A stretch of DNA of 24,000 nucleotides from [Ruminococcus] faecis JCM 15917 (GCA_001312505.1 BBDW01000008.1:18173-42172), one strand, 5' to 3'; shown: positions 4,661 through 24,000, counted from the stretch's first letter. The notes: generated by a model from the sequence alone, not told the origin. Made by a program: numbers and translations.

Positions 4661-5459
4661 AATGAAATCAATAGTTTCCTATGCAGTTTTAATTATTGCA
4701 AGTTTTCTCTCTGCATTCCCACTGTACTACATGCTTTGTGGAGCAACAAATACAAGTATTGATGTTGTAAGGGGAAGACTGTATCCGGGTACTTATCTGG
4801 CAGAGAACTTTAAGACGCTGGTAGGCATGCAGAATCTTGGACTGGCAATGTTCAATTCATTCCGTAATGCAATTATTATTACATTTGTAGCATTACTCGT
4901 GTGTTCAATCGCCGGATACGGATTCGAGATTTATCACGATAAAGGGAAAGACATTTTAATGAATATTTTGCTTCTTGCATGATGCTTCCTTTTGTAGCGA
5001 TTATGATTCCATTGTTTAAGATGTTTACATCATGGGGGATTGGTTAATACATGGATCGCGCTTGCACTTCCAACTATTTCAACACCATTTATGATCATGC
5101 TGTTCAGACAGGCAGCCCGTTCTTTTCCACATGATATTATTGAAGCGGCAAGACTTGAGGGATTAAGTGAAGTGCAGATTTTCTTTAAGATGTTTATTCC
5201 TGTCATGAAATCTACTTATGGAGCAGCAATGACAGTAACTTTTATGAATGCATGGAACAATTACTTATGGCCAACGATCATTTTACAGGACAGCAAAGCA
5301 ATCACTATGCCGATGCTTGTAGCGAACCTGAAGAGTGGTTATAGTGTTGACTATGGTATGCTGATGCTTGGTGTATTGATTTGTACACTTCCGACTGCAA
5401 TCATCTTCCTGTGCTTACAGAAGAGCTTTGCAAACGGAATTACAGGAGCGGTAAAATAA
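4644..5459 (+). pseudogene. Sugar ABC transporter permease (MalG-type), with two compensating frameshifts about 57 nt apart
   Basis: ORFs 4644..4982 and 5040..5459 are in the same frame. The segment between them reads correctly only in another frame (MMLPFVAIMIPLFKMFTSWG). One base is missing near 4975-4979 and the G5 run at 5034-5038 has the wrong length. The EAA loop IIEAARLEGLSEVQIFFKMFIPV has canonical spacing. The likely true start is ATG 4662 (MKSIVSY) or GTG 4653. Confidence 0.85.
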
Positions 5460-8087: not shown

Positions 8088-8975
8088 CTATATTTCAGCA
8101 TGTTCCAATATATAATTCTTAAAATTCGTAACAACAGGTGCCTGATAAACATTCTTCAAAGTTGCCATGTAGAAGAGTCTTTCCCAGGACGGAGTTGCAA
8201 TCTCTATGATTGAAACCGGTAAAGAGGAAAGAATCGGCATTCGCGGCACAACTGCGATGCCGAATCCGGCACTGACTAATCCGGCAACACCCTGATCTTC
8301 TTCCATTGAGTAAGCAATCTGAGGGTATCCGCCACATTTTTCAAATAACTTGTCAATTACATGTCTTAAACCGCTTCGCTTAGAGAAAACGATGTGCGGA
8401 TACGTAAGCGCTTCTTTTAGATCAATCGAAGTTTTCCCGTCCAAAGGATGTCCTTCCGGTACGATCAGTACAAGCTCTTGTTTTGCGACCGGAATAAACT
8501 CAACGAGCGGTTCATTGTCCATCTTGGAACAAAATGCGATGTCGTATTTTCGCTCTTTTAATCCCTGGATCATGTCGGATGTGAGTCCGGTTGAACTATG
8601 AAAATAAAAATCGATTTTTGTTAGGCGTGGAATCCAAAAAACCTTTTACAAAGTTCGGAACAACTGCACTGCTGAGCGTACGGAGTTCAACAATATCGAT
8701 GCGGCCTTCCCCCCAAATCCGGTCATCTGCAGTTTATTGATGCTTGAATCCAGCATATCCAAAGCCTGTTCCACATCGACAAGAAAAGCCTGTCCACATT
8801 TTGTGAGGACAACGTTACGTCCATCTTTTTCAAAGAGTTTTACTCCGAGCTCACTTTCCAGAGATGAGATTGCATGACTTAAGCTTGGTTGAGTGATAGA
8901 AAGAATCTCCGCAGCCTTTGTGTAGTGTTCTAGATGAGCGAGAGTAACAAAATATCTAAGATGATAGAGATTCAT
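8088..8975 (-). pseudogene. LysR-family transcriptional regulator, with two compensating frameshifts
   Basis: The N-terminal HTH reads MNLYHLRYFVTLAHLEHYTKAAEILSITQPSLSHAISSLE. ORFs 8646..8975 and 8088..8573 are in the same frame. About 31 codons between the C6 run (8709-8714) and the T5 run (8615-8619) read sensibly only in another frame (EGRIDIVELRTLSSAVVPNFVKGFLDSTPNK). The total of 295 aa is normal for an LTTR. It is divergent from the 9402-14393 operon. Confidence 0.9.
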
Positions 8976-9036: not shown

Positions 9037-9194
9037 TCTATTTGGTAACTGTTCAGAGCCAAGCAAAATTTCATAAAACAGATGTAAAATGCTTGCATTT
9101 TTAAGACTGTTTTTGAAATTTTATTTGGCGGATACGCCACACCGACGAAATGCGTAGCATTTTGGAGGTTGGCTCTGAACAGTTACTCTATTTG
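9037..9194. mobile_element. MITE-like non-autonomous element: 142 bp, 18-bp perfect terminal inverted repeats, 8-bp target-site duplication
   Basis: GTAACTGTTCAGAGCCAA (9045-9062) is the exact reverse complement of TTGGCTCTGAACAGTTAC (9169-9186). The element is flanked directly by TCTATTTG at 9037-9044 and 9187-9194. It has no ORF. It lies in the lysR/operon intergenic region. Confidence 0.6.
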
Positions 9195-9295
9195 AGAGAT
9201 AAATACGCAATAATGCTTATTGATAATAATATCGTAACACGAAGTGTAAATAAAATCTATAAACAAAATGCATGGATCGTGATAGAATTACCAAT

Positions 9296-9324
9296 TTGTC
9301 ATTTATTTAACAAACAGATATAAT
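9296..9324 (+). promoter_or_regulatory. Sigma-A type promoter candidate for the 9402-14393 operon
   Basis: TTGTCA (9296-9301), a 17-nt spacer, then TATAAT (9319-9324), about 75 nt upstream of ATG 9402. Confidence 0.55.
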
Positions 9325-9401
9325 AAAAATAGAAAAAAACAACAAGATTGAACAGAAAAATCCAATGGATTATATTCAATTTTTACAATGGAGGAAGAAT
9401 T

Positions 9402-10238
9402 ATGTCAAAGAAAAACCCAATCACAGTAAGTTCATGGACACTTGGAGATCAGTGCAAATTTGAAGATCGTGTAATCGCTGCAAAGGAAGCAGGATATGAA
9501 GGAATCGGTCTTCGCGCAGAGACTTATGTTGATGCATTGAATGAAGGACTTCATGATGAAGACATTCTTGCAATTCTTGACAAACATGATATGAAAGTAA
9601 CAGAGGTAGAGTACATTGTTCAGTGGTGTGAGGAACATCGTTCTTATGAGCAGAAATACAAAGAGCAGATGTGTTTCCATATGTGCGAACTCTTTGGAGT
9701 AGGCCACATCAACTGTGGACTGATGGAAAATTATTCTGTTGAGTACACAGCACAGAAATTAAAAGAACTTTGCCAGAGAGCAGGAAAATACATCATTGGT
9801 GTTGAGCCGATGCCATACAGCGGAATTCCGGATCTTAAGAAAGGTTGGGAAGTTGTAAAAGCTTCTGGATGCGACAACGCAATGCTCATTCTTGATACAT
9901 GGCACTGGGTAAGAGCAGATCAGCCATACGATATCCTTACACCGGAGATTGCCAAGAAAGTTATTTCTATCCAGATTAATGATGCTTATAAAAGACCATA
10001 TGCAGCACCTATTTTAAGAGATGAGTCTATGCATGATCGTCTTGCACCGGGAACAGGAGCAAAAGATACAGCAGGATTTGTTAAGATGATTAAAGACGCA
10101 GGAGTTGATCCGAAGGTTGTTGGTGTAGAAGTTATTTCTGATGCAATCCTTGGAAAAGGACTGAAAGAAGCAGCTGCTTATACATATGAAAACACAGAGA
10201 AAGTATTAAAAGAAGTTTGGCCAGAGTTGGTAGACTAA
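9402..10238 (+). CDS. Sugar phosphate isomerase/epimerase family TIM-barrel protein (xylose-isomerase-like fold; dehydratase/isomerase)
   Basis: RBS GGAGGA (9390-9395) lies 6 nt before ATG 9402. The 278-aa protein has features typical of this family: ITVSSWTLG, AGYEGIGLR and ILDTWHW (a His-containing metal-site-like motif). The 9348 TTG start in the track is unlikely. Confidence 0.65.
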   Translation: MSKKNPITVSSWTLGDQCKFEDRVIAAKEAGYEGIGLRAETYVDALNEGLHDEDILAILDKHDMKVTEVEYIVQWCEEHRSYEQKYKEQMCFHMCELFGVGHINCGLMENYSVEYTAQKLKELCQRAGKYIIGVEPMPYSGIPDLKKGWEVVKASGCDNAMLILDTWHWVRADQPYDILTPEIAKKVISIQINDAYKRPYAAPILRDESMHDRLAPGTGAKDTAGFVKMIKDAGVDPKVVGVEVISDAILGKGLKEAAAYTYENTEKVLKEVWPELVD

Positions 10239-10273
10239 TTTGAAAAACAGATGATGCCAAAGAGAGAGGTAAA

Positions 10274-12247
10274 ATGATGAAATTCAAAAATATGTTTTCT
10301 CCGATTCAGATTGGACCTATGACTGTTAAAAATCGTTTTGTGGTTCCACCGATGGGAAATAATTTCGCAAATTCAGACGGAACATGGAGTGACGAATCTG
10401 TGGCTTACTATGGTGAGCGTGCAAAAGGTCAGTTTGGTCTGATCACAATTGAAGCGACTGTAGTACATAAAGGAGCGAAGGGCGGTCCTAAGAAACCATG
10501 TCTTTATGATGACAACAGCATTGAAAGTCTGAAGAAAATCACAGATGCCTGTCATGCAGAAGGTGCAAAGGTATCTATCCAGCTTCAGAATGCAGGACCG
10601 GAAGGAAATGCAAAGAATGCAGGAGCACCGATCCAGGCAGCTACAGCAATCGCATCAGCAGATGGAAGAGACATTCCTGAAGAAGTATCTACAGAAAAAG
10701 TGTATGAGCTTGTAAAAGGATATGGTGAAGCAGCAGAACGTGCAATGAAAGGTGGAGCAGATGCAGTAGAGATCCATATGGCGCACGGCTATCTTGTAAA
10801 TTCATTTATGTCACCAAGAACAAATAAGCGTGTCGATGAGTTTGGCGGAAACTTTGAGAACAGAATGAGATTTTCACGTCTCATCATTGAAGAAGTAAAG
10901 AAGAAAACAGAAGGAAAGATTGCTGTTCTTGCACGTATTAACAGTACAGAAGACATGTTTGGCGGACTTGATAATCACGATATGTGTGCAGTTGCTTCTT
11001 ATTTAGAAGATTGCGGGATTGATGGTCTTCACGTATCCCGTGCAGTACATTTAAAAGATGAGTATATGTGGGCTCCGACAGGAATTCACGGCGGATTCTC
11101 AGCAGAGCTTGTTGCAAATATCAAGAAATGTGTTTCTATTCCGGTTATTACAGTCGGAAGATATACAGAACCACAGTTTGCAGAACAGATCATTAAAATG
11201 GGAAATGCAGATTTAGTAGCATTTGGACGTCAGTCACTTGCAGATCCGCACACACCACAGAAAGCAATGGAAGAAAGACTGGAAGATCTTACACCATGTA
11301 TCGCCTGTCTTCAGGGCTGTGTTGCTAATATGTATGCAGGTAAACCAATCTGTTGTCTTGTAAATCCAGTACTCGGACATGAAAAAGAAGGACTTCCGAA
11401 GGCTGAGAAGGCGAAAAAAGTTTACGTGATCGGTGGTGGTGTGGCAGGTATGTGTGCTGCATTTACAGCGAAGAGACGCGGACATGATGTAACATTATTT
11501 GAAGCTACAGATAAGCTTGGCGGTAATATGAGACTGGCTGCATATCCACCAGGAAAAGGTGATATCACAGGTATGATCAGAAGTTACATTGTAAAATGTG
11601 AAAAAGCCGGAGTTAATATCAAGATGAATACAAAAGTAACTGCACAGATGTTGAAAGAAGATACACCGGATGCAGTGATCCTTGCAACAGGAGCTGAGAC
11701 TTTAGTACTTCCATTTATCAAAGGTATTGAAAATCCGGATATCGTCTATGGTGTTGACTGCCTGGAAGGAACACGCTCGGTAGGACATAAAGTCTTAGTT
11801 GTTGGTGGCGGTATGGTAGGTGCAGAGACAGCAGACTTCTTAGCAGAACAGGGACATGAAGTAGCCATTATCGAAATGAGAGACGCGATCGGACCGGATG
11901 TGATCCATGAGCACAGAATGTTTCTTATGGAAGCATTTGAGAAATATGGCATCAAACAGATTACAAGTGCAGCTGTATCAGAGATCTTCTCAGATGGCGT
12001 AAGTTACAAAAATGCAGCAGATAAATCAGACGAGACGATCTACGAGGCAAGAGGATTCGACACAGTTGTTCTCTCTATGGGATTCAGCTCACGTTATACA
12101 CACCGTGATGGACAGAATGTAGTTTATGACTTTGCAGAAGAATTAAAAGACATCGTACCAGAAGTCCACATGGTAGGTGACGCAGTAAGAGCACGCCGTG
12201 CACTGGATGCCACAAAAGAAGCATATGAGGTTGCATTGAATTTATAA
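10274..12247 (+). CDS. FMN/FAD/[4Fe-4S] NADH:flavin oxidoreductase of the 2-enoate reductase / 2,4-dienoyl-CoA reductase (FadH, BaiH, FldZ-like) family
   Basis: The 657-aa protein has an OYE-type N-terminal barrel (FSPIQIGPMTVKNRFVVPPM; HMAHGYLVNSFMSPRTNKRVDEFGG). It has a Cys cluster, CIACLQGCVANMYAGKPICC. It has two dinucleotide folds, VIGGGVAGMCAA and VVGGGMVGAETA. Confidence 0.85.
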   Translation: MMKFKNMFSPIQIGPMTVKNRFVVPPMGNNFANSDGTWSDESVAYYGERAKGQFGLITIEATVVHKGAKGGPKKPCLYDDNSIESLKKITDACHAEGAKVSIQLQNAGPEGNAKNAGAPIQAATAIASADGRDIPEEVSTEKVYELVKGYGEAAERAMKGGADAVEIHMAHGYLVNSFMSPRTNKRVDEFGGNFENRMRFSRLIIEEVKKKTEGKIAVLARINSTEDMFGGLDNHDMCAVASYLEDCGIDGLHVSRAVHLKDEYMWAPTGIHGGFSAELVANIKKCVSIPVITVGRYTEPQFAEQIIKMGNADLVAFGRQSLADPHTPQKAMEERLEDLTPCIACLQGCVANMYAGKPICCLVNPVLGHEKEGLPKAEKAKKVYVIGGGVAGMCAAFTAKRRGHDVTLFEATDKLGGNMRLAAYPPGKGDITGMIRSYIVKCEKAGVNIKMNTKVTAQMLKEDTPDAVILATGAETLVLPFIKGIENPDIVYGVDCLEGTRSVGHKVLVVGGGMVGAETADFLAEQGHEVAIIEMRDAIGPDVIHEHRMFLMEAFEKYGIKQITSAAVSEIFSDGVSYKNAADKSDETIYEARGFDTVVLSMGFSSRYTHRDGQNVVYDFAEELKDIVPEVHMVGDAVRARRALDATKEAYEVALNL

Positions 12248-12275
12248 ATGAAATTATATCAGGAGGATTAGAATC

Positions 12276-13151
12276 ATGGAAAAAAGAATTTCTGGACACA
12301 CAGGCTTAATGGGATTATTTGGATCACCGGTTGGACATTCAGGATCACCGGCAATGTACAACTTCAGTTTCCAGCATGACGGATTAGATTATGCATATCT
12401 GGCATTTGATGTAACAGAGGAAGAAATGCCAAAAGCATTTGAGGCAATTCGTTTATTCAACATGCGCGCTGGTAACTTTACAATGCCATGTAAAAATATT
12501 GCAGCAAAGTTAGTTGACAAACTTTCTCCGGCAGCAGAGATCATCGGAGCATGTAACGCATTTGTAAATGATAATGGTGTGATCACAGGATACATTACAG
12601 ATGGTGTTGGATTTGTTAAAAATCTCGAGATCAATGGTGTATCTGTAAAAGATAAAAAGATTGTTGTCCTTGGTGCCGGTGGAGCCGCTACAGCTATTCA
12701 GGTTCAGTTAGCATTGGACGGAGCAAAAGAAGTTAACATTTTCAATATAAAAGATAAATTCTACGAAAGAGCAGAAGGAACAAAGGCTAAATTAGCAGAG
12801 AAGTGTCCGGACTGTGTTGTTACTGTAGAGGATCTTGCTGATAAGGCTAAACTGGAAGAAGAAATTAAAACTTGTGATATTCTTATCAATACAACGATTA
12901 TGGGAATGAAACCACACGAGGATGTAACTCTGGTTGACAAATCTTTATTCCGTAAGGATCTTGTTGTTGCAGATACTGTATACAATCCAGAGAAGACAAA
13001 GATGATCCTTGAAGCAGAAGAAGCAGGATGTAAAGCAATCGGTGGCGCAGGAATGCTTCTGCAGCAGGGGGCAGTTAACTACGAACTGTTTGTTGGAAAA
13101 GAGATGCCACTTGCTGAGTATCAGGAATTTCAGAAGGCTCAGGCAAAATAA
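12276..13151 (+). CDS. Shikimate/quinate 5-dehydrogenase family protein (AroE/YdiB-like)
   Basis: The 291-aa protein carries GSPVGHSGSPAMYN, NFTMPCK, GYITDGVGF and LGAGGAATAI, which correspond to the conserved AroE substrate and NAD(P) motifs. RBS AGGAGG lies upstream. Confidence 0.85.
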   Translation: MEKRISGHTGLMGLFGSPVGHSGSPAMYNFSFQHDGLDYAYLAFDVTEEEMPKAFEAIRLFNMRAGNFTMPCKNIAAKLVDKLSPAAEIIGACNAFVNDNGVITGYITDGVGFVKNLEINGVSVKDKKIVVLGAGGAATAIQVQLALDGAKEVNIFNIKDKFYERAEGTKAKLAEKCPDCVVTVEDLADKAKLEEEIKTCDILINTTIMGMKPHEDVTLVDKSLFRKDLVVADTVYNPEKTKMILEAEEAGCKAIGGAGMLLQQGAVNYELFVGKEMPLAEYQEFQKAQAK

Positions 13152-13178
13152 TTACATTCACAAAAGGAGAATGATGGA

Positions 13179-14393
13179 ATGAGAGCAAAGAAATATTTGT
13201 GGTCTATCCTTTGTGTATATTTTTGCTATTTAACACATGGTATCCAGGCTATCATTTTAAGTCAGAACAACGTAAACTTTGCAAAACAGTGGGGGGGATT
13301 CAATATGGCAGACCCACAGTCAGCAGCATATGCAGCAGGTCTTGCAGCGGTAAGTACAGCAGTTGCATGGACAGGCTTTGGTAAATTCGTCAGCGTCTGG
13401 ATTGGTGGAGAGATTTCGGATCATGTAGGACGTAAAAAATTAATGATCGGTGGAGCAGCATTATATATTCTATGCTTCCTTGGATTCTTATTTACAAAAA
13501 GTGCATTAGTTGCTTCTGTATGTGGATTTGTTTCAGGAGTTGCAACATCCGGTTTCTGGGATGCATCAGGATATCCGGCTGTACAGGAAGCTTATCCGGC
13601 AGCACCTGGATCTGCACTGATCGGGATCAAATTTTTTGTTTCTGTTTCCGGTATGATTTATCCATTCATGGTTGTTCATAATGCAAACAGCGGAAACTGG
13701 AAATTAAATGTTATTATCCCGCTTGTAATGTCAGTTGTTTGTCTGGTACTTGCAATTATTGCACCGTTTGCTTATGATGATCAGAAGAAAGCGTCAGAAG
13801 GAAAGAAAGACAAATCCGATAATGCAGTGCAGGCAGCAATGCTTGTAAAGCCAAATAAATTTATCGTATTTCTTGTAATGTTTTATGCGTTCCTTTGCAT
13901 GGCGATCATGTATGGCGCACAGCAGTATACAAAAGCATTTGGACTTTCCGTATGTGGACTTTCCGAGATTCAGGCAGCAGGTATGACTTCTATTTATACA
14001 ATCGGGTCTATCTGTGCAGTACTTTTCTGGGCGTTCATGATGGCAAAATTAAAATGGAACCCGTTAAAGGTTGTCCTTATTGATTCTATCTGTACAGCAG
14101 TGGCACTTGCGGGTGTACTGTTTATCCATCAGGTAGCAATCATTTACATCGCTATCGCAATGTTGGGATTCTTCGCAGCAGGAGGTGCTCTTCAGACAGG
14201 TCTTGCAGTTGTTCAGTTATTTAACCCAGGACCGAAGGGGGGGAGAAATACTGGTATTTATTACACATTTATGGGTGCGGCAAGCTACCTGATCCCAGTA
14301 GTGGCAGCACAGCTTACAAAATCATCTGGTGAGGCAAGTGCAGTATACAGCCTCATGATCATGCTGTTAGTATTTGCAATCTTGCTATTTTAA
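13179..14393 (+). CDS. MFS transporter
   Basis: The 404-aa protein has about 12 hydrophobic segments. The MFS loop 2-3 motif GGEISDHVGRKKLMI is present. RBS AAGGAGA (13164-13170). Confidence 0.85.
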   Translation: MRAKKYLWSILCVYFCYLTHGIQAIILSQNNVNFAKQWGGFNMADPQSAAYAAGLAAVSTAVAWTGFGKFVSVWIGGEISDHVGRKKLMIGGAALYILCFLGFLFTKSALVASVCGFVSGVATSGFWDASGYPAVQEAYPAAPGSALIGIKFFVSVSGMIYPFMVVHNANSGNWKLNVIIPLVMSVVCLVLAIIAPFAYDDQKKASEGKKDKSDNAVQAAMLVKPNKFIVFLVMFYAFLCMAIMYGAQQYTKAFGLSVCGLSEIQAAGMTSIYTIGSICAVLFWAFMMAKLKWNPLKVVLIDSICTAVALAGVLFIHQVAIIYIAIAMLGFFAAGGALQTGLAVVQLFNPGPKGGRNTGIYYTFMGAASYLIPVVAAQLTKSSGEASAVYSLMIMLLVFAILLF

Positions 14394-14601
14394 GTTCTCT
14401 CTACTTAGTAGCACAGCACAAAAAAATCTTCGGAAAAAGTGCATTATAGGAAGTAACATAGTAACAATCTCAATTCATACGAAAAAATGGACTGTTGTTC
14501 CAAAAGATGTTATCATCAAAAAGAATGCAGTCCTTTTTTTGAGATTAAATTGTTAAAAAATAGACACTTGTAAATCGAAAAATGAAGGAGAAGCTTAAAA
14601 G

Positions 14602-15972
14602 ATGAGTCCGAAAAGAACAAGAAAAGCCAACGAACTTCCCTATATTCCACTCGGCCCATTTCAGTGGCGTATTCCGGGAATTCATTATAAATTAGAATAT
14701 GTAGAATTTTTTCAAGGTCTGATCCTTGGCGCTACTGCGTTAAGTTCGATTCCGTATCTGACGGATAATCTTGGACTTCCGTATGAACTTGCATGGAGCT
14801 GCGTCATCATTGAAGTATTTATGTACATGCTTCATGGATGGTTAGGAGATCCGGTTGTCCCGGGATGGATCACACCGACATTACCATTTACACTGGCATA
14901 TTTAAATGGATTCCCAAAAGGACCGGAGCGTATTCAGGCAATGATTGCATTGCAGCTGCTTGTTGCATTTGTATTTATATTTATGGGAATTACCAAGCTT
15001 GCAGATAAATTCGTGAATGGTGTGCCGAATTCAATCAAAGGCGGTATTCTGATTGCAGCACCGATTACAGTATTGCAAGGACAGCTCTCAGATGGAAGCC
15101 AGCTGATGACTGCGCCAATCGCAACACTTTCCGGTACATTGTTACTTGCGTTTTTGAGTTTTTCACCGTTCTGTGAAAAGAACAGAGAAAAATATAAAAT
15201 ATTGGATATCATGGCAAAATATGGAAACTTATTCCCATATCTGATTGCTATGTTAGCAGGAGTATTGCTTGGAGAATTGTCAAAACCGGTTCTCGAACTT
15301 GGAAGACTCATCCGAATTCCTGACTTTAGTAATATTTTCCACACAGTCAGTATTTTTGCAGTCGGATTTCCACCGATTTCAAAATTTATAAGTGCAATTC
15401 CGTTGGCGTTGATCTGTTATGTACTTGCGTTTGGAGATTTTGTTACATCACAGACGTTGGTAGAGGAAGCACAGGACAGTAGAAGTGACGAATATATTGA
15501 CTTTAATTCAAGCAGATCAAACCTGATCAGTGGTCTTAGAAACCTGCTCCTTGCAATTTTTGCACCGTTCCCACCACTGGCAGGTCCGCTTTGGATTGGT
15601 ATGACCGTATCTGTTGCAATGCGTTATAAAGAAGGAAAGAAAGTGATGAAATCGCTGATCGGTGGAATGAGTTCTTTCCGTATGGCAACATTCATCAGTG
15701 TTATTTTAGTGCCGATCGTGTCATTCATGAAACCAATCATGGGCGTGGGTTCTGCGATCACTTTGTTATTCCAGGCATATGTATGTGCAAGAATCGGTAT
15801 GGATTATTGTAAGACGAGTACAGATAAAAGTATTGCCGGAGTAATGGCAGCAGTGCTTGCATTTAAAGGTTCCGGATGGGCTTTGCTTGTAGGTTTTGCA
15901 ATGAACATTTTACTGTCTAATATGGAATTTCAGAAGAGGAAATTAGAGATTTCGGAGACAGAACAAAATTAA
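14602..15972 (+). CDS. Uncharacterised polytopic membrane protein (putative permease)
   Basis: The 456-aa protein has RBS GAAGGAG (14584-14590) and at least 10 hydrophobic segments. I can name no family with confidence. It has its own terminator and a 208-nt upstream gap. Confidence 0.6.
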   Translation: MSPKRTRKANELPYIPLGPFQWRIPGIHYKLEYVEFFQGLILGATALSSIPYLTDNLGLPYELAWSCVIIEVFMYMLHGWLGDPVVPGWITPTLPFTLAYLNGFPKGPERIQAMIALQLLVAFVFIFMGITKLADKFVNGVPNSIKGGILIAAPITVLQGQLSDGSQLMTAPIATLSGTLLLAFLSFSPFCEKNREKYKILDIMAKYGNLFPYLIAMLAGVLLGELSKPVLELGRLIRIPDFSNIFHTVSIFAVGFPPISKFISAIPLALICYVLAFGDFVTSQTLVEEAQDSRSDEYIDFNSSRSNLISGLRNLLLAIFAPFPPLAGPLWIGMTVSVAMRYKEGKKVMKSLIGGMSSFRMATFISVILVPIVSFMKPIMGVGSAITLLFQAYVCARIGMDYCKTSTDKSIAGVMAAVLAFKGSGWALLVGFAMNILLSNMEFQKRKLEISETEQN

Positions 15973-15990
15973 TAAAAGAATTCAACAGGA

Positions 15991-16038
15991 GCAGTTAGTC
16001 TGGAAAATAGATTAGCTGCTTTTTGTGTAAAAAGCAGC
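15991..16038. terminator. Bidirectional intrinsic terminator between convergent genes
   Basis: On the + strand, GCAGTTAGTCT (15991-16001) pairs with AGATTAGCTGC (16009-16019), including two G-U pairs, and is followed by TTTTT. An overlapping hairpin, GCTGCTTTTT (16015-16024) with AAAAAGCAGC (16029-16038), serves the minus-strand gene that ends at 16040. Confidence 0.7.
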
Positions 16039-16039
16039 C

Positions 16040-16739
16040 TTAAACAAACGTAAGCACCGCCTCTTTAATTTTCTGATAATGTGATTCAGAAATCACTATT
16101 TTCCCATGCTCGGTTGCAATCAGTCCCTCCTCGTACAGACAGTCTAAATGTCTGTATAGCGTACGAAGCTGATGTTAAGTAGCTGAGCCAATTCTTCTTT
16201 TGTTGCTTTGACGATGACAGGAAATTTCTGATTTTCACAACATCGAAATAGATGAAGCAATAACCTGTCTTTTGTATTATTTAAAAGTAAATATTCATTT
16301 TCATTCAAAATTCGTTCAACTAATAAGGACAAATGCTTAAGGCTGAGCACTCCGAATTCAGGATCTCTTGAAAGTTGATCCAGATATGTTTGTATAGGAA
16401 TACGAATATAGGAACAATCAGAAGCACAGCGAATCGTTGCTGTGTGTCTGTTTAATGTAGGATGTACAGCTTCAAATAAGCCGTAGATTTCTATAGGTTT
16501 GCAGGCTACGGCAGTCAATAATTTTCCGGAAGGACTGTATTTTTCAGAATAACAGGCGCCTTTTAAAAGTATATAGATATATTTCGAAGGCATATCATTA
16601 TAAATAAGACAATCATTCTTGGAGGCATGCTCAATTTTTAGCCCTGCCTGATCAAGTAAATCTAAAAAAATTTAGATTCTAAACTTTTTTCTAAAAATTC
16701 TTCTGCATATTCAACAATTTTTTTTAGATCTCCGGACAT
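16040..16739 (-). pseudogene. Crp/Fnr-family transcriptional regulator, split by two -1 frameshifts
   Basis: Three frames join to give 233 aa. The N-terminal piece is MSGDLKKIVEYAEEFLEKSLESKFF, and its junction needs A8 rather than A7 at 16664-16670 (it then continues LDLLDQAGLKIEHASKNDCLIYNDM). The middle piece is track ORF 16144..16593, the cNMP-binding-like domain. After a missing base near 16161-16168 comes the C-terminal HTH, TLYRHLDCLYEEGLIATEHGKIVISESHYQKIKEAVLTFV. It is divergent from yjjI. Confidence 0.8.
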
Positions 16740-16760
16740 TTTTTGTTCCTTTCTTCTAGA

Positions 16761-16780
16761 AACATGCCAAATGGCATTTT
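16761..16780. promoter_or_regulatory. Candidate regulator-binding palindrome (5-N4-5) in the Crp/Fnr - yjjI divergent region
   Basis: ATGCC-AAAT-GGCAT (16764-16777) sits inside the imperfect 20-bp dyad AAACATGCCAAATGGCATTT. Its centre is about 31 nt upstream of a TATCAT -10-like hexamer (16801-16806), which gives roughly class-II activator geometry. Confidence 0.3.
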
Positions 16781-16873
16781 TTTAAATTCCATCCTAATGA
16801 TATCATAAAGGCCATAAGAGGACAATAAATTTCAACCGTTGTTTCAGTATTGAATTATTTGGGAGGTATTGCC

Positions 16874-18400
16874 ATGTTAAACATTACTAATTTAAAAGAA
16901 ACTGTGGAATCGATCATAACAAATAGTGCACTTACGCATGAGCAGGCTATGATCGCGTTATCGGATGTGCCATTGTCTTATGTGGAATTTTTCGAAACTA
17001 CAAATGAGTTTAGAGAATTGTGTGAGGCGGGATGTTTGTGCAGAATGGCAGAAGGAAATGTCACATATCAACCGAGATATATTCTTCCGGATTATGAAAA
17101 ATTAATGAGAGAAGGATGCAAATTCTTACGTTTGGATCCACCTAAAAATTTATTCGAAGCGATTCAGACATTGGAAATCTTTTATCGTCATGTCCCATCA
17201 GTTACACATTATCCGGTTTACCTGGGATCTGTAGATAAATTGCTGGAACCATTCATGGATGATGAGAATGCATATAAGCTGATCAAAAGCTTCCTGATCT
17301 TTTTAGACCGCTCAATTCCGGATTCTTATTGCCACATGAACTTAGGACCTGAAGCAACAAGGGCAGGTGAGATGATTGTTGAGATTGAAACAGAATTGAA
17401 AAATGCAATTCCTTCAATCACACTGCTTTATGATCCGGATATAACACCAGATGATTTTGCAGAAAAATGTGTGATCTGTGCATTGAATTGTGCGAAGCCA
17501 AGTTTTGCAAATCACAAAATGTATCGCAAGCTGTATGATGGCGCTTATGGAATTGCAAGTTGCTACAACGCTTTACCGATAGCAGGCGGCTCCTTTACAT
17601 TATCTCGTGTTGTTTTAAGTAGACTGGCAGAACGTGCAAAAGACAGCGAGCATTTCCTGGAAGAGTTATTGCCGCGCGCAGTAAAAGAACTGTGTGGATA
17701 TATTGAAAATAAAATCGAATTTTTGGTAGAAAAGAGTCATTTCTTTAAATCAAATTTCTTAGTACAAGAGGGATTTGTTAAGGTTGAAAATTTCACCGGC
17801 ATGTTTGGTGTTGTCGGTATGAATGAGTGCGTAAACACATTGATGGAAAAAGAGCATAAATCTGACCGTTATGGATATAGCGAAGATGCAGATCAGCTGG
17901 CCATCCGAATCCTGGAAAAACTTCAGGAATGTGTAAACTCTTTTGAGAGTAAATATTGTGATTGCACGGAACATCATTTTCCATTACATGCTCAGGTTGG
18001 AATAGACAGTGACTATGATATCAGTCCGGGAGCACGTATTGCGATTGGATCGGAGCTTCCGCTGCATCAGCATTTACATCACTGTGCAAAAGTACATCAT
18101 TTCTTCCCATCAGGCGTGGGTGATATTTTCCCGTTTGATGAAACCGCAAAAAGAAATCCGGATGCTATTTTAGATTTGATTAAGGGCGGATTTAAGGAAG
18201 GAATGCAGTATTTTTCAACCTATTCGTCTGATTCAGATGTTATTAGAATCACAGGATATCTGGTGAAAAAGTCGGATATTGCTAAATTAGACAATGGTAT
18301 TGCAGTTCCTCAGGCAAATGCAAAATGGGGGGGATATTACGAAGTGAAAAACAGTAAGATCTATGAAAGAAAGGTGCGGAGCTTAAATGGCGATCGTTAA
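16874..18400 (+). CDS. yjjI: YjjI-family glycine radical enzyme (DUF3029/TIGR04040-like), substrate unknown
   Basis: RBS GGGAGG (16861-16866) lies 7 nt before ATG 16874. The 508-aa product is close to E. coli YjjI at about 516 aa. A C-terminal glycyl-radical finger reads SDSDVIRITGYLVKK. The candidate thiyl Cys is in GIASCYNALPIAGG. The next gene is a dedicated activase. Confidence 0.8.
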   Translation: MLNITNLKETVESIITNSALTHEQAMIALSDVPLSYVEFFETTNEFRELCEAGCLCRMAEGNVTYQPRYILPDYEKLMREGCKFLRLDPPKNLFEAIQTLEIFYRHVPSVTHYPVYLGSVDKLLEPFMDDENAYKLIKSFLIFLDRSIPDSYCHMNLGPEATRAGEMIVEIETELKNAIPSITLLYDPDITPDDFAEKCVICALNCAKPSFANHKMYRKLYDGAYGIASCYNALPIAGGSFTLSRVVLSRLAERAKDSEHFLEELLPRAVKELCGYIENKIEFLVEKSHFFKSNFLVQEGFVKVENFTGMFGVVGMNECVNTLMEKEHKSDRYGYSEDADQLAIRILEKLQECVNSFESKYCDCTEHHFPLHAQVGIDSDYDISPGARIAIGSELPLHQHLHHCAKVHHFFPSGVGDIFPFDETAKRNPDAILDLIKGGFKEGMQYFSTYSSDSDVIRITGYLVKKSDIAKLDNGIAVPQANAKWGGYYEVKNSKIYERKVRSLNGDR

Positions 18401-19226
18401 TAAAATTATTCATAGCAGTGTTGTAGACGGACCGGGAAACAGAGCAGCTGTTTTTTTACAAAAATGTAATTTTAAGTGTTCTTACTGTCACAATCCGGAG
18501 ACAATCGGGCAGTGTGTTCAATGTGGTGCATGTGTCGAGAAGTGTCCAGCCAAAGCACTTTCCCTGAAAGACGGAAAGATTGTATGGGATGAAGATAAAT
18601 GTTGTGAATGTGATACTTGTATCCATGTATGTCCTCATATGTCTTCGCCACGAGTGAAAGATTATACAGCGGAACAGATTATGGAACAGATTGCACCGGA
18701 TCTTCCATATATAAGAGGAATTACGGTGTCAGGCGGTGAGTGTACACTGCAAAGAGATTTCCTGGCTGAGTTATTTTTATTAGCGAAGCAGCAAGGATTA
18801 TCAACATTAATTGATAGTAATGGCAGTTATGATTTTTCACAGGATGCAGAGCTTATGAATGTTTGTGATGGTGTGATGTTGGATGTTAAAGCATTTGATT
18901 GCGATGCACATAAGAAATTAACCGGTATGAGTAATGAGCAGGTTCTGAAAAATGCAGTTTACTTAGCTGAACATGGAAAGCTTGAGGAGATTCGTACAGT
19001 TATAGTACCGGATCAACTGCCGAATGAAGATACTGTTTTTCAAATCACAAAATTGCTGAAGCCGTATTTAGATAAAAAACAAATTCGATATAAAATAATC
19101 GCTTATCGTCAGTTTGGAGTTCGTTCTCCATATGATCAGATTTTCAGGACTCCATCATCCAATGAAATGATGAAATACAAAAAAATCGCGGAGGATAATG
19201 GATTTGAAAATATTATTTTGATATAG
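18387..19226 (+). CDS. yjjW: Glycyl-radical enzyme activating radical-SAM protein (YjjW family)
   Basis: It overlaps yjjI by 14 nt. It has the radical-SAM motif CNFKCSYCHNPE, two ferredoxin-type clusters (CVQCGACVEKCP and CCECDTCIHVCP) and the SAM-binding motif GITVSGGECT. Confidence 0.9.
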   Translation: MAIVNKIIHSSVVDGPGNRAAVFLQKCNFKCSYCHNPETIGQCVQCGACVEKCPAKALSLKDGKIVWDEDKCCECDTCIHVCPHMSSPRVKDYTAEQIMEQIAPDLPYIRGITVSGGECTLQRDFLAELFLLAKQQGLSTLIDSNGSYDFSQDAELMNVCDGVMLDVKAFDCDAHKKLTGMSNEQVLKNAVYLAEHGKLEEIRTVIVPDQLPNEDTVFQITKLLKPYLDKKQIRYKIIAYRQFGVRSPYDQIFRTPSSNEMMKYKKIAEDNGFENIILI

Positions 19227-19242
19227 TAAAAGGAGGGAAAAG

Positions 19243-20237
19243 ATGAAGATTTGTATTGATTGCGATCCGGGTGTAGATGATTCTTTAGCTATATTATTTG
19301 CGCTGGCAAGACCGGATGTAGAAGTTGTTGGCATTTCTACAAGTGTTGGAAACGTGACAGCAAAGCAAGGCGCTGACAATGCGTTGAGAATCTTAAAATT
19401 AGCAGGAATGGAGCATAAGATTCCGGTATGTGTCGGGGGGGCTGAACAACCGTTGAATGGAGATGAGGTTGATTTCCCGGAATTTATTCATGGGAAAAAT
19501 GGAATCGGTAATGTTGAATTACCACCATCCGATCAAAAACCTGTTGATATGGATGTATGTGATTTTCTGTATCAGATTGCTTCTGAAAATGAAGGCGAAC
19601 TGGTGTTAGTCACATTAGGACGAATGACCAATATTGCAAAAACAATCAAACGTTATCCGGATTTCGCCGGAAAGATTAAAAAGGTTGTGTCCATGGGCGG
19701 AACGGTTTTAGCTACAGGTAATGTTTCGCCTGTTGTTGAAGCTAATATCGGAGGAGATCCTGAGGCAGCCGACATAGTCGTTCAAACACCATGGGATATG
19801 ACAATGGTAGGATTGGATGTGACATTAAAGACAATCTTAAGAAAAGAAGACTTAGAATATGCAGAAAAATATTGCAGAGAAGAGTGTAAAGAGCAGATTC
19901 ATTCTTAAGAGAAGAGATGAAATGGTATATGCAGGGCGCAAGACAGCAGAATTGGATGAGAGAATGTTGTCCGCTTCACGATCCGCTGGCAATGATCGTA
20001 GCGGTAGATCCAAGTGTGGTAAAGACACACAGATGTGTTACCAGAATAGAATGTGAAGGTGCATATTGTAAAGGAATGGTCGTAACAGACTTAAGAGAAT
20101 ATCCAATTGATGGAGAATATGTAAATCATTGTATGGAAGTTGATTCCAAAAAAGTTTTAGACACTTTGTTCGCGGCGTTTTTATTAAAAAGTATTAAGAA
20201 GAAAGAAAACGTATTCTACGAGGAGGAAATAAAATGA
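19243..20237 (+). pseudogene. Inosine/uridine-preferring nucleoside hydrolase family protein, with one -1 frameshift
   Basis: It has the N-terminal Asp cluster KICIDCDPGVDDSLAI and the C-terminal CPLHDPLAM motif. ORFs 19243..19908 and 19917..20237 join if one base is added at ~19888-19894 (..YCREECK(E)|ADSFLREEMKWYMQG..), giving 331 aa. RBS AAGGAGGG lies 16 nt after the yjjW stop. Confidence 0.9.
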
Positions 20238-21292
20238 GAAAGATGAAAAAATGGTTGGCACTTATGGTAGCAGGTATGATGACAGTAGGTTTAATGGGAT
20301 GTTCAGGGTCATCAGATGAAGGAAAGAAAGAATCTGGTTCAGATAAAGCAGACATGAAAGCTGCTGTGGTTTTTGGCTTAGGCGGCCTGGGAGATCAGTC
20401 TTATAATGACCTTGCATATGAAGGTATGGAACGTGCAAAGGAAGAACTCGGCGTAGACTATGACTATGCTGAGCCAAAAGAAGTAACAGATTTTGAGACA
20501 ATTCTTCGTGCGATGAGTGATTCAAACGAATATGAAGTAATCATTGGTGTTGGCTTTGATTCTGTAGATGCGTTAGCATCAGTAGCACCGGATTATCCGG
20601 ATCAGAAATATGCTTCCATTGATTCATCTTTAGTAGGGGGGGATAATATTGTAAGTTATTCCTGCAAAGAACAGGAAGGATCGTTCCTTGTAGGAGCGTT
20701 GGCAGCATATATGAAACAGGATGCAGCTACATATGGATTAGAAGATAATCATAAATATGGATTTGTAGGTGCACTTGAGAATGATATTATCAACCATTTT
20801 GCAGCAGGATATCGTGCAGGAATCGAGTATGTTGATTCTGATGCAGATGTAGCAATCCAGTATGTAGGCGGAGATAATCCGTTTGGTGATACAACAACTG
20901 CAAAAGAAATTGCAACGACTCAGAAGGGGGGGAAAGGTTATGACATCATTTTCCATGCAGCGGGCGGATCAGGTCTTGGTGTGTTTGCAGCAGCTCAGGA
21001 ATCTGATTTCATTGCAATCGGTGCAAACTCAAATCAGAATATCATAGATCCGGATCATATCGTAGCAAGTATGTTAAAACGTGTTGATGTTGCAGCATAT
21101 GATATTGTAAAAGCAGCACTCGAAGGAGATCTTCAGGTTGGAAGCGAAAAGGTTTTAGGACTGGAAGATGAAGGAATTGGATATACATTAGATGGCAGCA
21201 ATATTAAAGTTCCGGAAGATGTAGTAGAAAAATTAGAAGAGATAAAAGAGAAAATCATTGCTGGAGAAATTCAGGTTCCGGTAGAGCTGTAG
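20234..21292 (+). CDS. BMP-family (PnrA/TmpC-like) ABC transporter substrate-binding lipoprotein, probable nucleoside binding
   Basis: An ATGA overlap links it to the hydrolase stop. RBS AGGAGGA (20221-20227). The lipobox is GLMGC (MKKWLALMVAGMMTVGLMGCSGSS). The 352-aa protein is followed by the typical fused-ATPase and two-permease set. Confidence 0.9.
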   Translation: MRKMKKWLALMVAGMMTVGLMGCSGSSDEGKKESGSDKADMKAAVVFGLGGLGDQSYNDLAYEGMERAKEELGVDYDYAEPKEVTDFETILRAMSDSNEYEVIIGVGFDSVDALASVAPDYPDQKYASIDSSLVGGDNIVSYSCKEQEGSFLVGALAAYMKQDAATYGLEDNHKYGFVGALENDIINHFAAGYRAGIEYVDSDADVAIQYVGGDNPFGDTTTAKEIATTQKGGKGYDIIFHAAGGSGLGVFAAAQESDFIAIGANSNQNIIDPDHIVASMLKRVDVAAYDIVKAALEGDLQVGSEKVLGLEDEGIGYTLDGSNIKVPEDVVEKLEEIKEKIIAGEIQVPVEL

Positions 21293-21300
21293 GAAATAAG

Positions 21301-21337
21301 AAAAGAAGATGTTTGAAGTTTAAGCATCTTCTTTTTC
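21301..21337 (+). terminator. Intercistronic stem-loop / partial terminator after the binding-protein gene
   Basis: AAAAGAAGATG (21301-21311) is perfectly complementary to CATCTTCTTTT (21325-21335), with a 13-nt loop and a T-rich 3' end. Confidence 0.5.
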
Positions 21338-21359
21338 ATAAAATATCGAGGTGGCAAAT

Positions 21360-22864
21360 ATGTATGCTGTGGAAATGAGAAAAATTACGAAGCGCTTTGG
21401 TAGTTTTACTGCAAACGATCAAATCGATTTCTTAGTAAAAAAAGGTGAAATACACTGCCTGTTAGGAGAAAACGGAGCAGGAAAAACAACATTGATGAAT
21501 GTGCTGTTCGGTTTGTACAAAGCAGACGAAGGCGAATTAAAGATAAACGGTAAAGAGATTAAAAAACATTCTGCAAGAAATGCTTTTCAATGTGGATTAG
21601 GAATGGTTCATCAGCATTTCATGTTAGTGGATGCACTTACAGTATGGGAAAATGTTGTGATCGGAAATGAACCAGGAAAGTTCAGTATCAATAAAAAAGA
21701 AGCAATAAAAAAGGTTCAGGAGTTATCAGACAAATATCATTTCGATTTGAATGCAGAGGCTAAGGTTGCAGATTTGTCAATTGGTATGAAACAAAGAGTA
21801 GAGATTTTGAAAACTCTGTACCGCGGTGCAGAAATCCTGATTTTGGACGAACCGACAGCGTATTAACTCCACAAGAAGTATTAGAGCTTTTGGATATTTT
21901 CAGAGATATCAGAAAACAGGGAAAGACGATTATCTTCATTACACATAAGCTGAATGAGACAAAAGCGGTATCGGATTCACTTACTGTATTAAGAGCCGGA
22001 AAATCGGTGTTCCAGGCAGCTACAAAGGATGTTACGGTAGAAATGCTTGCGAATGAGATGGTCGGACATGAAGTTTCTTTCCATTTGGAGCGTAAGAAAC
22101 AGGATGCAGGTGAAACGATATTATCAATCGAGAATGTAAAGTTGCTTGAAAATGCGTCCAATACAGTTTCACTTGATGTTCATGCCGGGGGGGAAATCCT
22201 TGGAATTGCAGGAGTTGAAGGGAATGGACAGATGCAGTTGGAAGAGATGATCATGGGACTGCAGAAGTGTAAAGAAGGAAAGATTTCCATCAAGGGAGAA
22301 GATATTACAGAATGTCCAACGAAAAAGCGTTTGGGACTTGGTATGAGTTATATTCCTTCTGAAAGACATCAGCGTGCAATCCTTCCAGGATTTTCAATCC
22401 TAGAAAATTATCTATTGGGAAATCAGAATGATCCGAAATATGTTCAGCATGGCTGGATTAATTTCAAGACATTATCTGAGACAACAAAAAAATTAATGGA
22501 AAAATATGATGTGCGTGCGGTGGATGAAAAGCAGAGTATAGGATCTTTGTCAGGTGGAAACCAGCAGAAGATGGTTTTGAGTCGAGAAGTAGAAAAAGAT
22601 TCTGATTTCATTCTGGTCTGCCAGCCGGTCAGAGGTCTGGATATAGGAGCAATCAATTATATTCATGAAATCTTGTTGGAACTGAGGAATCAAGGAAAAG
22701 CTATTTTACTGATTTCAGCAGAACTTACAGACATTTTCCAATTATGTGATCGTATTGCGGTTATGTACAAAGGAGAGGTCATGGCACTTGGAAAAAATGA
22801 AGAATTTACAAATGAGTCAATAGGTCTGCTAATGGCTGGTCAAAGGGGGGGCGTGGAATCATAA
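21360..22864 (+). pseudogene. ABC transporter ATP-binding protein with two fused NBDs (nucleoside/sugar type), with one -1 frameshift
   Basis: NBD1 has Walker A GENGAGKTT, signature LSIGMKQRVEIL and Walker B ILILDEPTA. The frame breaks at ~21857-21860 (GCGTATTA seen; GCGGTATTA would give the canonical DEPTAVLTPQEVLELLDIF). NBD2 has GVEGNGQ, LSGGNQQK and LVCQPVRGLD. The joined protein is 501 aa. The start is ATG 21360, after GAGGTGG. Confidence 0.9.
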
Positions 22865-23928
22865 TGGAAAAACAAACTGTAAAAAAACAAAAAGTATTTT
22901 TAAGTCTTGAACAATTATACTTATCAATATTTGCAATTATTTTATCCTTATTAATTACTGCATTGATCATGCTTGTATCAGGGGGGGAAAATCCAATCAA
23001 TGCATTTCAGGCACTGTTAGCAGGCGCTTTAGGATCTAAAACTGCGATTGCGACAACATTAGGCAAAACAGTACCGTTATTATTTGTTGGTATGGCATGT
23101 GCATTTTCTAACAAAGCAGGCTTATTTAATATCGGATGTGAAGGCCAGCTTTATATCGGAGCATTGACAGCAACAGCGACAGCGTTGGCAATGCAGGGGG
23201 GGCTTCCTAGATTTCTTGTTATTCTTGTATCATTTTTAACAGGAATGATGTCCGGAGCACTGGTTGGAGGATTCAATGGCCTTTTAAAGGCAAAGCTGAA
23301 TATTAATGAAGTACTTGTGGCAATCATGCTGAACTATATTATGAAGTTTTTCGCAAGCTACTGTGTACATGGTCCGATGAAAGATCCGAAATCCAAAGTT
23401 ATGCAATCACCTTCGATCGGTCAGGAATATATGCTTACGAAAATCCTGCCAAAATCTCAGCTGACTACAGCATTGATTCTGGGATTGATCCTGGCAGCAC
23501 TGTTATATGTATTTATCAACAAAACAGGAGCAGGTTTTGCACTTCGTGCAGTTGGAGAAAATGGTTCTGCGGCACAGGCAGCAGGAATCAGTATGGTTAA
23601 GACAGTTATTATTACGATGGCAGCCAGTGGAGCGATTGCAGCATTGACAGGAGTTACGGAAGTATTCGGAAAAACAGGAAAGTTCGTAGACGGATTTTCT
23701 CCTGGATATGGATTCACAGGAATCGCGGTTGCTGTATTAGGTAATAACCATCCGGTTGGAGTTATCTTGAGTGCACTTTTATTTGGAATTTTAGAATCAG
23801 GTGCAATGACAATGAGTTATGTGGCCGGCGTTTCAACAAGTATGATCAAAGTGATGCAAGGTCTGGTTATTCTATTCGTAGCGACTCCGGAATTAGTTGC
23901 ATTCATGAAGAGAAGGAGGGCGAAATAA
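22864..23928 (+). CDS. ABC transporter permease (BMP-system, NupB/YufP-like)
   Basis: It is translationally coupled by a TAATG overlap with the ATPase stop. The 354-aa hydrophobic polytopic protein fits the standard BMP-transporter gene order. Confidence 0.85.
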   Translation: MEKQTVKKQKVFLSLEQLYLSIFAIILSLLITALIMLVSGGENPINAFQALLAGALGSKTAIATTLGKTVPLLFVGMACAFSNKAGLFNIGCEGQLYIGALTATATALAMQGGLPRFLVILVSFLTGMMSGALVGGFNGLLKAKLNINEVLVAIMLNYIMKFFASYCVHGPMKDPKSKVMQSPSIGQEYMLTKILPKSQLTTALILGLILAALLYVFINKTGAGFALRAVGENGSAAQAAGISMVKTVIITMAASGAIAALTGVTEVFGKTGKFVDGFSPGYGFTGIAVAVLGNNHPVGVILSALLFGILESGAMTMSYVAGVSTSMIKVMQGLVILFVATPELVAFMKRRRAK

Positions 23929-24000
23929 TGGAAAATTTAGCACATCTTTTTTCTATGGATATGGTCATGGTTACTTTGCGAATGGCCATTCCCTTAATTC
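23928..24000 (+). CDS. Second ABC transporter permease of the BMP system (5' fragment, runs off the window)
   Basis: ATG 23928 overlaps the previous stop (TAATG). The N-terminus MENLAHLFSMDMVMVTLRMAIPLI is hydrophobic. Only 24 codons are visible. Confidence 0.55.
   Translation, partial: MENLAHLFSMDMVMVTLRMAIPLI

Follow-up and report, generated by a model that had tools for sequence, protein, structure and literature searches.

Introduction

YbiW and PflD, two long-standing orphans among the glycyl-radical enzymes (GREs) of E. coli, were solved by way of their genomic context. These isomerases convert 1,5-anhydroglucitol-6-phosphate and 1,5-anhydromannitol-6-phosphate to 1-deoxyfructose-6-phosphate in a pathway called anhydroglycolysis, acting on sugar phosphates and passing their product to aldolases (PMC13450708). 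YjjI, together with its activase YjjW, is among the last of the E. coli glycyl-radical systems to which no function has been assigned. Here we analyze yjjI and yjjW in a stretch of 24,000 nucleotides from [Ruminococcus] faecis JCM 15917 (GCA_001312505.1 BBDW01000008.1:18173-42172; hereafter the window), where both genes are found with genes for a nucleoside hydrolase and an ATP-binding cassette (ABC) importer. The original prediction, made from the sequence of the window alone, described YjjI as a GRE without assigned substrate. The literature searched bears this out, as it contains no functional assignment for YjjI and no GRE tied to nucleoside catabolism. A June 2026 review of the GREs leaves YjjI out and places no enzymes other than ribonucleotide reductases (RNRs) in the RNR-like branch (PMC13450708).

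Three further described systems are relevant for comparison. Class III RNRs carry the glycyl radical on a C-terminal hairpin with a G-Y-L motif and a single cysteine on the finger loop, and they resemble YjjI in both features as well as in their connection to ribosyl compounds. The GRE 1,2-eliminases (glycerol and propanediol dehydratases, HypD, CutC, IslA) use one catalytic cysteine for radical elimination beside a hydroxyl-bearing carbon, and share with the YjjI/YjjW system an activase with ferredoxin-like inserts. Finally, the classical nucleoside systems (E. coli deoCABD, PnrA/BMP importers, RihABC, PsuK/PsuG) are built from the same transporter, hydrolase, phosphorylase, kinase, mutase, and aldolase families that surround yjjI; the literature searched contains no link between such catabolic operons and a radical enzyme. 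YjjI is apparently an RNR-like GRE that was recruited to a catabolic operon, with neighbors that belong to known nucleoside systems.

Family, Motifs, and Fold of YjjI and YjjW

The 508-residue product of yjjI (16874-18400, plus strand) matches TIGR04040 with 650.7 bits (cut-off 498.3, positions 2-497 of 497) and PF11230 with 669.8 bits (E = 2e-201, positions 1-485 of 485). These full-length matches place the protein in the YjjI family, as had been proposed. This family is narrow: among 1.84 billion representative sequences we found about 20 full-length clusters at 50% identity, and about 65 residues are invariant in homologues down to 38% identity. Among the invariant residues are R68, Y69, D73, Y74, N156, R245, E299, E318, H372, Q374, D380, R388, E394, N428, and R458. 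Because of this narrowness and invariance, the family fits one conserved substrate across purine, pyrimidine, and deoxynucleoside contexts. Three database proteins (P0007, P0056, and P0124) present YjjI fused to a Bmp domain, an old-yellow-enzyme-type reductase, or DeoC. Since the contigs that encode them are short and unfused genes of nearly the same sequence exist, they are probably chimeras produced by frameshift or misassembly, and they were not used.

The glycyl-radical motif R458-I-T-G461-Y462 is invariant in 46 aligned sequences, and G461 is the predicted radical glycine. In the AlphaFold 2 (AF2) model (predicted local distance difference test score 90.7), this residue occupies the tip of a hairpin between strands 456-459 and 462-465. 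The only invariant cysteine in the same 46 sequences, C230, sits at the tip of a second hairpin between strands 225-228 and 232-235, and aligns within three residues of C384 in NrdD (hhalign, probability 35%). The surrounding loop, S229-C230-Y231-N232, is invariant too. It contains neither the CXE motif of eliminases and isomerases nor the CC pair of the pyruvate formate-lyase type, because residue 230 is its single cysteine (motif definitions: PMC13450708).

A search by sequence found no solved structure. With the AF2 model as a Foldseek query, the 25 best matches in the PDB were all class III RNRs (E-values down to 3e-17, TM scores of 0.6 to 0.72, 11-13% sequence identity), followed by PflD, HypD, and pyruvate formate-lyase (PFL). 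The Pfam model NRDD (PF13597) matches residues 193-361 with 32.9 bits (cut-off 26.2), and the YjjI sequence RITGYL resembles RVCGYLG of NrdD. In contrast, YjjI scores only 20.6 bits on the NrdD model TIGR02487 (cut-off 326.35), and several parts of the reductase are missing. YjjI has no ATP cone, and without C-terminal cysteines it also lacks the Zn ribbon that NrdD forms with its CxxC...CxxC motif. The bottom-face cysteine of the reductase, C175 in E. coli NrdD, falls into a gap beside the invariant YjjI sequence PRYILPDY in an alignment with a probability of 35%, and no second cysteine is conserved in the 46 YjjI sequences. YjjI also differs from YbiW and PflD by its length of about 505 residues, its RNR-like fold, and its C-Y-N loop, and from the 1,2-eliminases by its size, its fold subclass, and the absence of the CXE glutamate.

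YjjW (18387-19226, plus strand) exceeds the cut-off of TIGR04041 (374.9 bits, cut-off 250.2) and contains PF04055 and Fer4 domains, which establishes its identity as the YjjI activase that had been predicted. A radical S-adenosylmethionine motif of the form CX3CX2C spans residues 27-34 (C27, C31, C34), and two ferredoxin-like CX2CX2CX3C motifs are present. The next-best matches of YjjW are the activases of HypD, CutC, and HpsH, so that YjjW resembles the PFL2/eliminase type. It is not of the NrdG type (40 bits on TIGR02491, cut-off 126). In this respect the YjjI system departs from class III RNRs, as it does by the location of yjjI in catabolic and transport operons rather than with nrdG.

Genomic Context of YjjI Homologues

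To quantify how often YjjI keeps company with nucleoside genes, we collected 80 loci from species-representative genomes (the best 80 of 526 matching relatives) and 80 more from metagenomes, with a Treponema-type sequence as reference. The neighboring open reading frames (ORFs) of 171 loci were then clustered without prior labels. YjjW adjoins YjjI in 147 of 161 loci. After these two, the commonest families in the 171 loci all represent transporter, regulator, or nucleoside genes: ABC ATPases (98 loci), permeases (63), BMP proteins (62), Crp-type regulators adjoining yjjI (53), nucleoside phosphorylases of the DeoD/Udp type (38), IU-type nucleoside hydrolases (37), ribokinases (29), MtaD/DadD-like amidohydrolases (deaminases, 19), and GntR regulators (18). 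The next unrelated family occurs in 16 loci only. Cytidine deaminase, adenosine deaminase, uridine kinase, DeoC, DeoB, and PsuG were also found among the neighbors.

When only loci of at least 12 kb are counted, one or more nucleoside genes are present in 40 of 61 loci from genomes and 28 of 43 from metagenomes, or about 65% of 104. Nucleoside genes are still found in 21 of 34 groups when the loci are de-replicated at 70% YjjI identity. Such genes make up well under 1% of a genome, and therefore a set of about 20 neighbors would rarely include one by chance. The strong enrichment of nucleoside genes near YjjI homologues, a central expectation of the original prediction, means that the link between YjjI and nucleoside genes is strongly supported by gene neighborhood. 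Of the conditions named as refuting the original prediction, those open to sequence analysis (no such enrichment, or a protein outside the YjjI family) did not hold.

This link is not tied to one gene arrangement. At least 10 different gene orders join YjjI to nucleoside genes, and YjjI is part of nucleoside uptake and cleavage operons in four phyla (Bacillota, Spirochaetota, Fusobacteriota, and Pseudomonadota), in line with the claim that the association recurs across phyla. Because gene order differs between lineages, selection is a better explanation than inherited synteny. Lachnospiraceae have a colinear operon as in the window. Loci from Christensenellaceae encode GntR, purine nucleoside phosphorylase, a deaminase, ABC components, and BMP divergently from YjjI-YjjW, while Youngiibacter and Leptotrichia have the order nucleoside hydrolase-RbsK-YjjI-YjjW. 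In Spirochaetes the whole set is divergent and both types of regulator are present. One group of metagenome loci (L127, L128, L151, L159, L160, L170, and others) shows the order BMP-YjjI-YjjW-ATPase-permeases-Cdd-(Add)-DeoC/DeoB, which puts YjjI-YjjW inside the transporter operon; uridine kinase is also encoded there in the same direction. A metagenome-assembled genome from Eubacteriales has the order deoB-deoC-yjjI-yjjW.

The pattern in Enterobacterales is mixed. In E. coli K-12, yjjW-yjjI is indeed located beside deoCABD, as had been stated in the original prediction, with a 257-bp spacer between the divergent units. Edwardsiella has the same neighborhood with nupC downstream (deoCABD<>yjjIW<nupC), and another genome of this order carries nupC on the same strand 70 nt upstream of yjjI. 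Proteus and Providencia have no nucleoside genes near yjjI. Some associations are each specific to one lineage. PsuG occurs with a PfkB kinase beside YjjI in two loci (L058, L069), an energy-coupling factor transporter with TenA in two others (L070, L073), and the queuosine-precursor transporter QueT in loci of Clostridium sensu stricto (L062-L068, L080). The co-located amidohydrolase is most similar to deaminases of methylthioadenosine (MTA), S-adenosylhomocysteine (SAH), and 5'-deoxyadenosine (4f0r, E = 2e-70).

Proposed Function

The next question is what YjjI may do in these nucleoside operons. A radical step on a nucleoside-derived product, the central inference of the original prediction, is a well motivated hypothesis. 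The specific proposal that YjjI functions in nucleoside catabolism by a thiyl-radical reaction on a nucleoside-derived pentose or pentose phosphate is one to which we give about even weight, with ribose-5-phosphate or a close relative as the most likely candidate substrate. We favor the pentose because the partner enzymes (purine phosphorylase, Cdd, Add, PsuG, and unspecific hydrolases) vary in base preference and have this one product in common. Hydrolase and ribokinase would yield ribose-5-phosphate, as would PsuK and PsuG; phosphorylase and DeoB would produce ribose-5-phosphate or its deoxy analogue, and DeoC would consume the latter. The pentose phosphate node also fits YjjI because its fold binds ribose 5'-phosphates.

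By this proposal, YjjW would install the radical on G461 of YjjI, G461 would pass it on to C230, and the resulting thiyl radical would abstract a hydrogen atom from the sugar. Since YjjI has no reducing second cysteine, a redox-neutral elimination or rearrangement that resembles the first half of the reductase reaction seems more likely than a formate-driven reduction. A bolder version, which we consider rather improbable, would make YjjI the second functional branch of the RNR-like enzymes, one that removes the 2-hydroxyl or 2-O-substituent of a free pentose phosphate. If so, ribonucleoside-derived ribose would be converted by a radical route to 2-deoxy or 3-keto-2-deoxy pentose phosphate, and DeoC or an equivalent enzyme would split this product into C2 and C3 units. 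Gut bacteria, including E. coli, would then possess an anaerobic bypass of the pentose phosphate pathway.

Several observations weigh against a role of YjjI in pentose phosphate catabolism. The pentose phosphate pathway is a universal route for ribose-5-phosphate that involves no radical chemistry, and the need for a radical enzyme is therefore unexplained. No nucleoside gene lies within 10 kb in about 35% of the long loci, which include those from Clostridium sensu stricto, Proteus, and Providencia. The counts are also partly non-independent, as certain lineages contribute several loci. That YjjI lacks the second cysteine is deduced from a weak alignment with a single NrdD (hhalign probability 35%). 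The pentose substrate is a candidate, and binding of the regulator to its presumed operator (see below) and co-transcription of the genes are deduced from sequence, the latter from spacings and ribosome-binding sites that fit a single transcription unit; an RNA hairpin within the operon could attenuate read-through.

The first alternative is that YjjI acts on an intact or modified nucleoside, a modified sugar, or a released nucleobase. We give it a modest chance. Candidate substrates are 2'-O-methyl ribonucleosides, 2-O-methylribose (by radical elimination of methanol), 5'-modified adenosines, and compounds of the queuosine type. A radical enzyme would be easier to justify for such recalcitrant substrates, and the similarity of the neighboring amidohydrolase to MTA, SAH, and 5'-deoxyadenosine deaminases, the PsuG genes beside YjjI, and the QueT genes in Clostridium loci all point in this direction. 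Aerobic clusters that combine a 2'-O-methyluridine hydrolase with deoxyribose-phosphate aldolase, ribokinase, and GntR have also been reported, in which the methylated sugar has no known fate (PMC6278475). A base-specific substrate is difficult to reconcile with partner enzymes that span purine, pyrimidine, C-nucleoside, and deoxynucleoside chemistry while the roughly 65 invariant residues of YjjI stay constant. Sugars modified at the 5'-position can be excluded in operons with a true ribokinase (one that scores above its equivalog cut-off), because this enzyme requires a free 5-OH. The links to QueT and TenA are each restricted to single lineages.

We judge it quite unlikely that YjjI works as a simplified ribonucleotide or ribonucleoside reductase that makes deoxyribose compounds from imported ribonucleosides with formate or another reductant, either for salvage of DNA precursors or to feed DeoC. 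The proximity of its fold to NrdD, the PF13597 match, and the RITGYL sequence are consistent with such an activity, as is the presence of DeoC or DeoB beside YjjI in 4 of the 34 de-replicated groups and in E. coli and Edwardsiella. Regulation in E. coli K-12 fits as well. The DeoR operator O1, a perfect 16-mer palindrome, is located inside the yjjI coding sequence (11665-11680 of the E. coli locus, L001), and O2 is located in the yjjI-deoC spacer (12264-12279), 599 bp from O1. From these positions we infer that the yjjI promoter would be enclosed by the DeoR repression loop. The inducer of DeoR is deoxyribose-5-phosphate. Against this reductase reading stand the score on TIGR02487, far below the cut-off, the absence of an equivalent to C175 of NrdD or of any second conserved cysteine, the lack of Zn ribbon and ATP cone, and an activase of the PFL2/eliminase type with ferredoxin inserts instead of the NrdG type.

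Chromatin immunoprecipitation (ChIP) and expression data show that yjjI is directly activated by FNR in E. coli (PMC3688515), and the gene is induced anaerobically in Yersinia (PMC3792023). Since our search for FNR boxes in the E. coli yjjI-deoC spacer gave nothing above chance, the FNR assignment rests on the published ChIP. That YjjI serves an unrelated anaerobic process, perhaps linked to nitrogen or nitrate, and shares its loci with nucleoside genes incidentally, or that the copy in the window is decaying or non-functional, is very improbable. In favor of these readings, nucleoside genes are missing from about one third of the long loci, a role in nitrogen metabolism was guessed in 2011 from a bicluster in which yjjI is co-expressed with narG in E. 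coli and Salmonella (PMC3228777), and the window contains frameshifts in three genes of the locus. Against them, at least 10 architectures in four phyla retain YjjI with nucleoside genes, in some cases inside the transporter operon. Shared control by FNR accounts for the co-expression with narG and for the 2011 guess, and the frameshifts are homopolymer errors of a kind that runs through the whole stretch aligned with a close relative (see below).

A pentose phosphate substrate for YjjI would have consequences beyond this operon. Nucleoside operons, a dedicated regulator with its predicted operator, and a reductase-like architecture without the reducing cysteine narrow the search to a handful of candidate substrates. 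If the proposal is true, radical enzymology would gain a new reaction class. The turnover of nucleosides and RNA by gut microbes, a flux that is relevant to the purine and urate balance of the host, would gain a new anaerobic step.

Organization of the Predicted Operon

The locus is best described as a predicted nucleoside-utilization operon of a gut anaerobe from the Lachnospiraceae, with yjjI and yjjW as its first genes. ORF listing and inspection of the gene junctions gave the order yjjI-yjjW-nucleoside hydrolase-BMP lipoprotein-ABC ATPase-two permeases on the plus strand, with a Crp-family regulator encoded divergently. These data also confirmed the proposed extent of yjjI with its RITGY motif and a 14-nt overlap of its reading frame with that of yjjW. 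A GGGAGG ribosome-binding site precedes yjjI. As described earlier, the hydrolase has a ribosome-binding site of its own: the 16-nt spacer between yjjW and the hydrolase ATG at 19243 contains AAAGGAGGG.

The hydrolase (19243-20187, plus strand; PF01156) contains the motif DCDPGVDD at residues 6-13, which conforms to the DXDXXXDD signature. Its two fragments in the window match PF01156 profile positions 1-203 and 220-296, and the protein is most similar to RihA, RihC, and UriH but scores below the cut-offs of these families. The next gene (20234-21292, plus strand) encodes a BMP/PnrA-family substrate-binding lipoprotein (PF02608, 172 bits) with the lipobox LMGC, and its solved relatives include the nucleoside-binding TmpC/PnrA, BmpD, and PnrA from S. 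pneumoniae. An overlap of hydrolase stop and BMP start (ATGA) that was part of the original prediction turned out to be an artefact of a 1-nt insertion at 20178. The hydrolase ends near 20187, and 46 nt with a GAGGAGG sequence separate it from the BMP start.

A fused ABC ATPase with two PF00005 domains follows (21351-22864, plus strand), then permease 1 (22864-23928, plus strand; BPD_transp_2, PF02653 with 145.7 bits) and the start of permease 2, which runs into the end of the window (23928-24000, plus strand). The TAATG couplings claimed for these genes are present at 22862-22866 (ATPase to permease 1) and 23926-23930 (permease 1 to permease 2), but the ATPase is not one intact ORF in the window. 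Together, the PF02608 lipoprotein, the fused ATPase, and two BPD_transp_2 permeases make up an importer of the BMP/PnrA nucleoside type, with a nucleoside as the predicted ligand. Past the end of the window, as read from the intact metagenome contig L086, permease 2 is followed by a ribokinase (323.4 bits on TIGR02152, cut-off 299.65) and a nucleoside phosphorylase of the uridine/purine type that scores below family cut-offs.

The spacings through the operon are -14, +16, +46, +58, -1, and -1 nt, and none of the spacers that separate its genes contains a terminator-like site by a consensus scan. The description of the locus as tightly coupled holds for most junctions but is slightly overstated for the 58-nt spacer between BMP and ATPase. 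This spacer contains a 17-bp RNA hairpin (21300-21336, plus strand; folding energy of -17.7 kcal/mol, z = -4.97 relative to shuffled sequences) that the simple terminator scan had missed. The hairpin may act as a partial terminator or as an mRNA-stabilizing element, and thereby more binding protein may be made relative to the membrane components.

Regulation

The divergent regulator gene (16040-16739, minus strand) has the predicted position and family (PF00027 on a 149-residue fragment) but is broken into three pieces in the window. Its intact orthologue on L086 (233 residues) combines the domains cNMP_binding and HTH_Crp_2. Because the translation of this orthologue contains no FNR-type cysteine cluster, the signal is probably a metabolite.

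Between the regulator and yjjI we found the palindrome ATGCCAAATGGCAT (16764-16777), with its 3' edge 96 nt before the yjjI ATG. This is the window copy of a predicted operator with the consensus TG(A/C)CA-N2-TG(T/G)CA that occurs upstream of yjjI in 16 loci, 15 of which carry a gene for a Crp-family regulator. The consensus matches 16 times in 21.5 kb of upstream DNA and 10 times in 1.33 Mb elsewhere, which amounts to an enrichment of about 100-fold. We therefore presume that ATGCCAAATGGCAT is the binding site of the Crp-family regulator, which probably controls the operon through this site. A terminator scan had called the palindrome a weak terminator, a reading that we rejected because the palindrome is conserved together with the regulator.

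Other lineages appear to use a different control element. In nine loci among L029-L043 (Christensenellaceae-like), the regulator is of the GntR type instead of the Crp type, and a palindrome TATAC-N2-GTATA is located between BMP and yjjI, where it likely serves as a GntR operator for both divergent units. Rfam models, applied to the window and to 13 loci that have no regulator close by, revealed no riboswitch upstream of yjjI; the matches found in these scans are unrelated cobalamin, TPP, Moco, T-box, and azaaromatic elements.

Sequence Errors in the Window

Three genes of the locus are interrupted in the window. The hydrolase appears as two ORFs (19243-19908 and 19917-20237) because of frameshifts at 19901 (-1) and 20178 (+1), the ATPase as two ORFs (21351-21866 and 21890-22864) with a 1-nt deletion at 21858, and the regulator as three pieces with 1-nt deletions at 16167 and 16670. 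Three metagenome contigs encode the closest protein (P0001, 99% identity), and on them all genes are intact; L086-L088 encode a regulator of 233, a hydrolase of 313, and an ATPase of 499 residues.

We aligned the window with L086 (99.3% identity over 14.9 kb, window 9139-24000), and every length difference proved to be a homopolymer indel. The GGGG runs of L086 all read GGGGGGG in the window, at 11 sites and always with three additional bases, a uniform pattern that looks like a systematic base-calling or polishing artefact. One such expansion at 18327-18329 adds a glycine to YjjI, which explains its length of 508 residues compared to 507 in relatives. Besides these sites, seven single-base homopolymer indels occur over the same stretch. 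Since all frameshifts are homopolymer indels and none is present in the 99.3%-identical contigs, we read them as artefacts of sequencing or assembly and reject the idea that this locus is decaying. Many more genes of the window are split outside the aligned stretch, for example a GH112-like gene (91-2320), a permease (4644-5459), and a LysR gene (8088-8975).

Flanking Genes

Directly upstream of the regulator, 14602-15972 encodes a multi-pass membrane protein of 456 residues without a Pfam or NCBIfam match. It holds the same position in close relatives, and its gene is followed by a bidirectional terminator-like hairpin at 16014-16039. Further upstream, 9348-14393 encodes a sugar-phosphate isomerase/epimerase-like protein, a 657-residue flavoenzyme similar to old yellow enzyme and 2,4-dienoyl-CoA reductase, a shikimate-dehydrogenase-like protein, and a major facilitator superfamily transporter. 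This cluster is possibly a catabolic unit of the quinate/shikimate type and seems unrelated to the yjjI operon.

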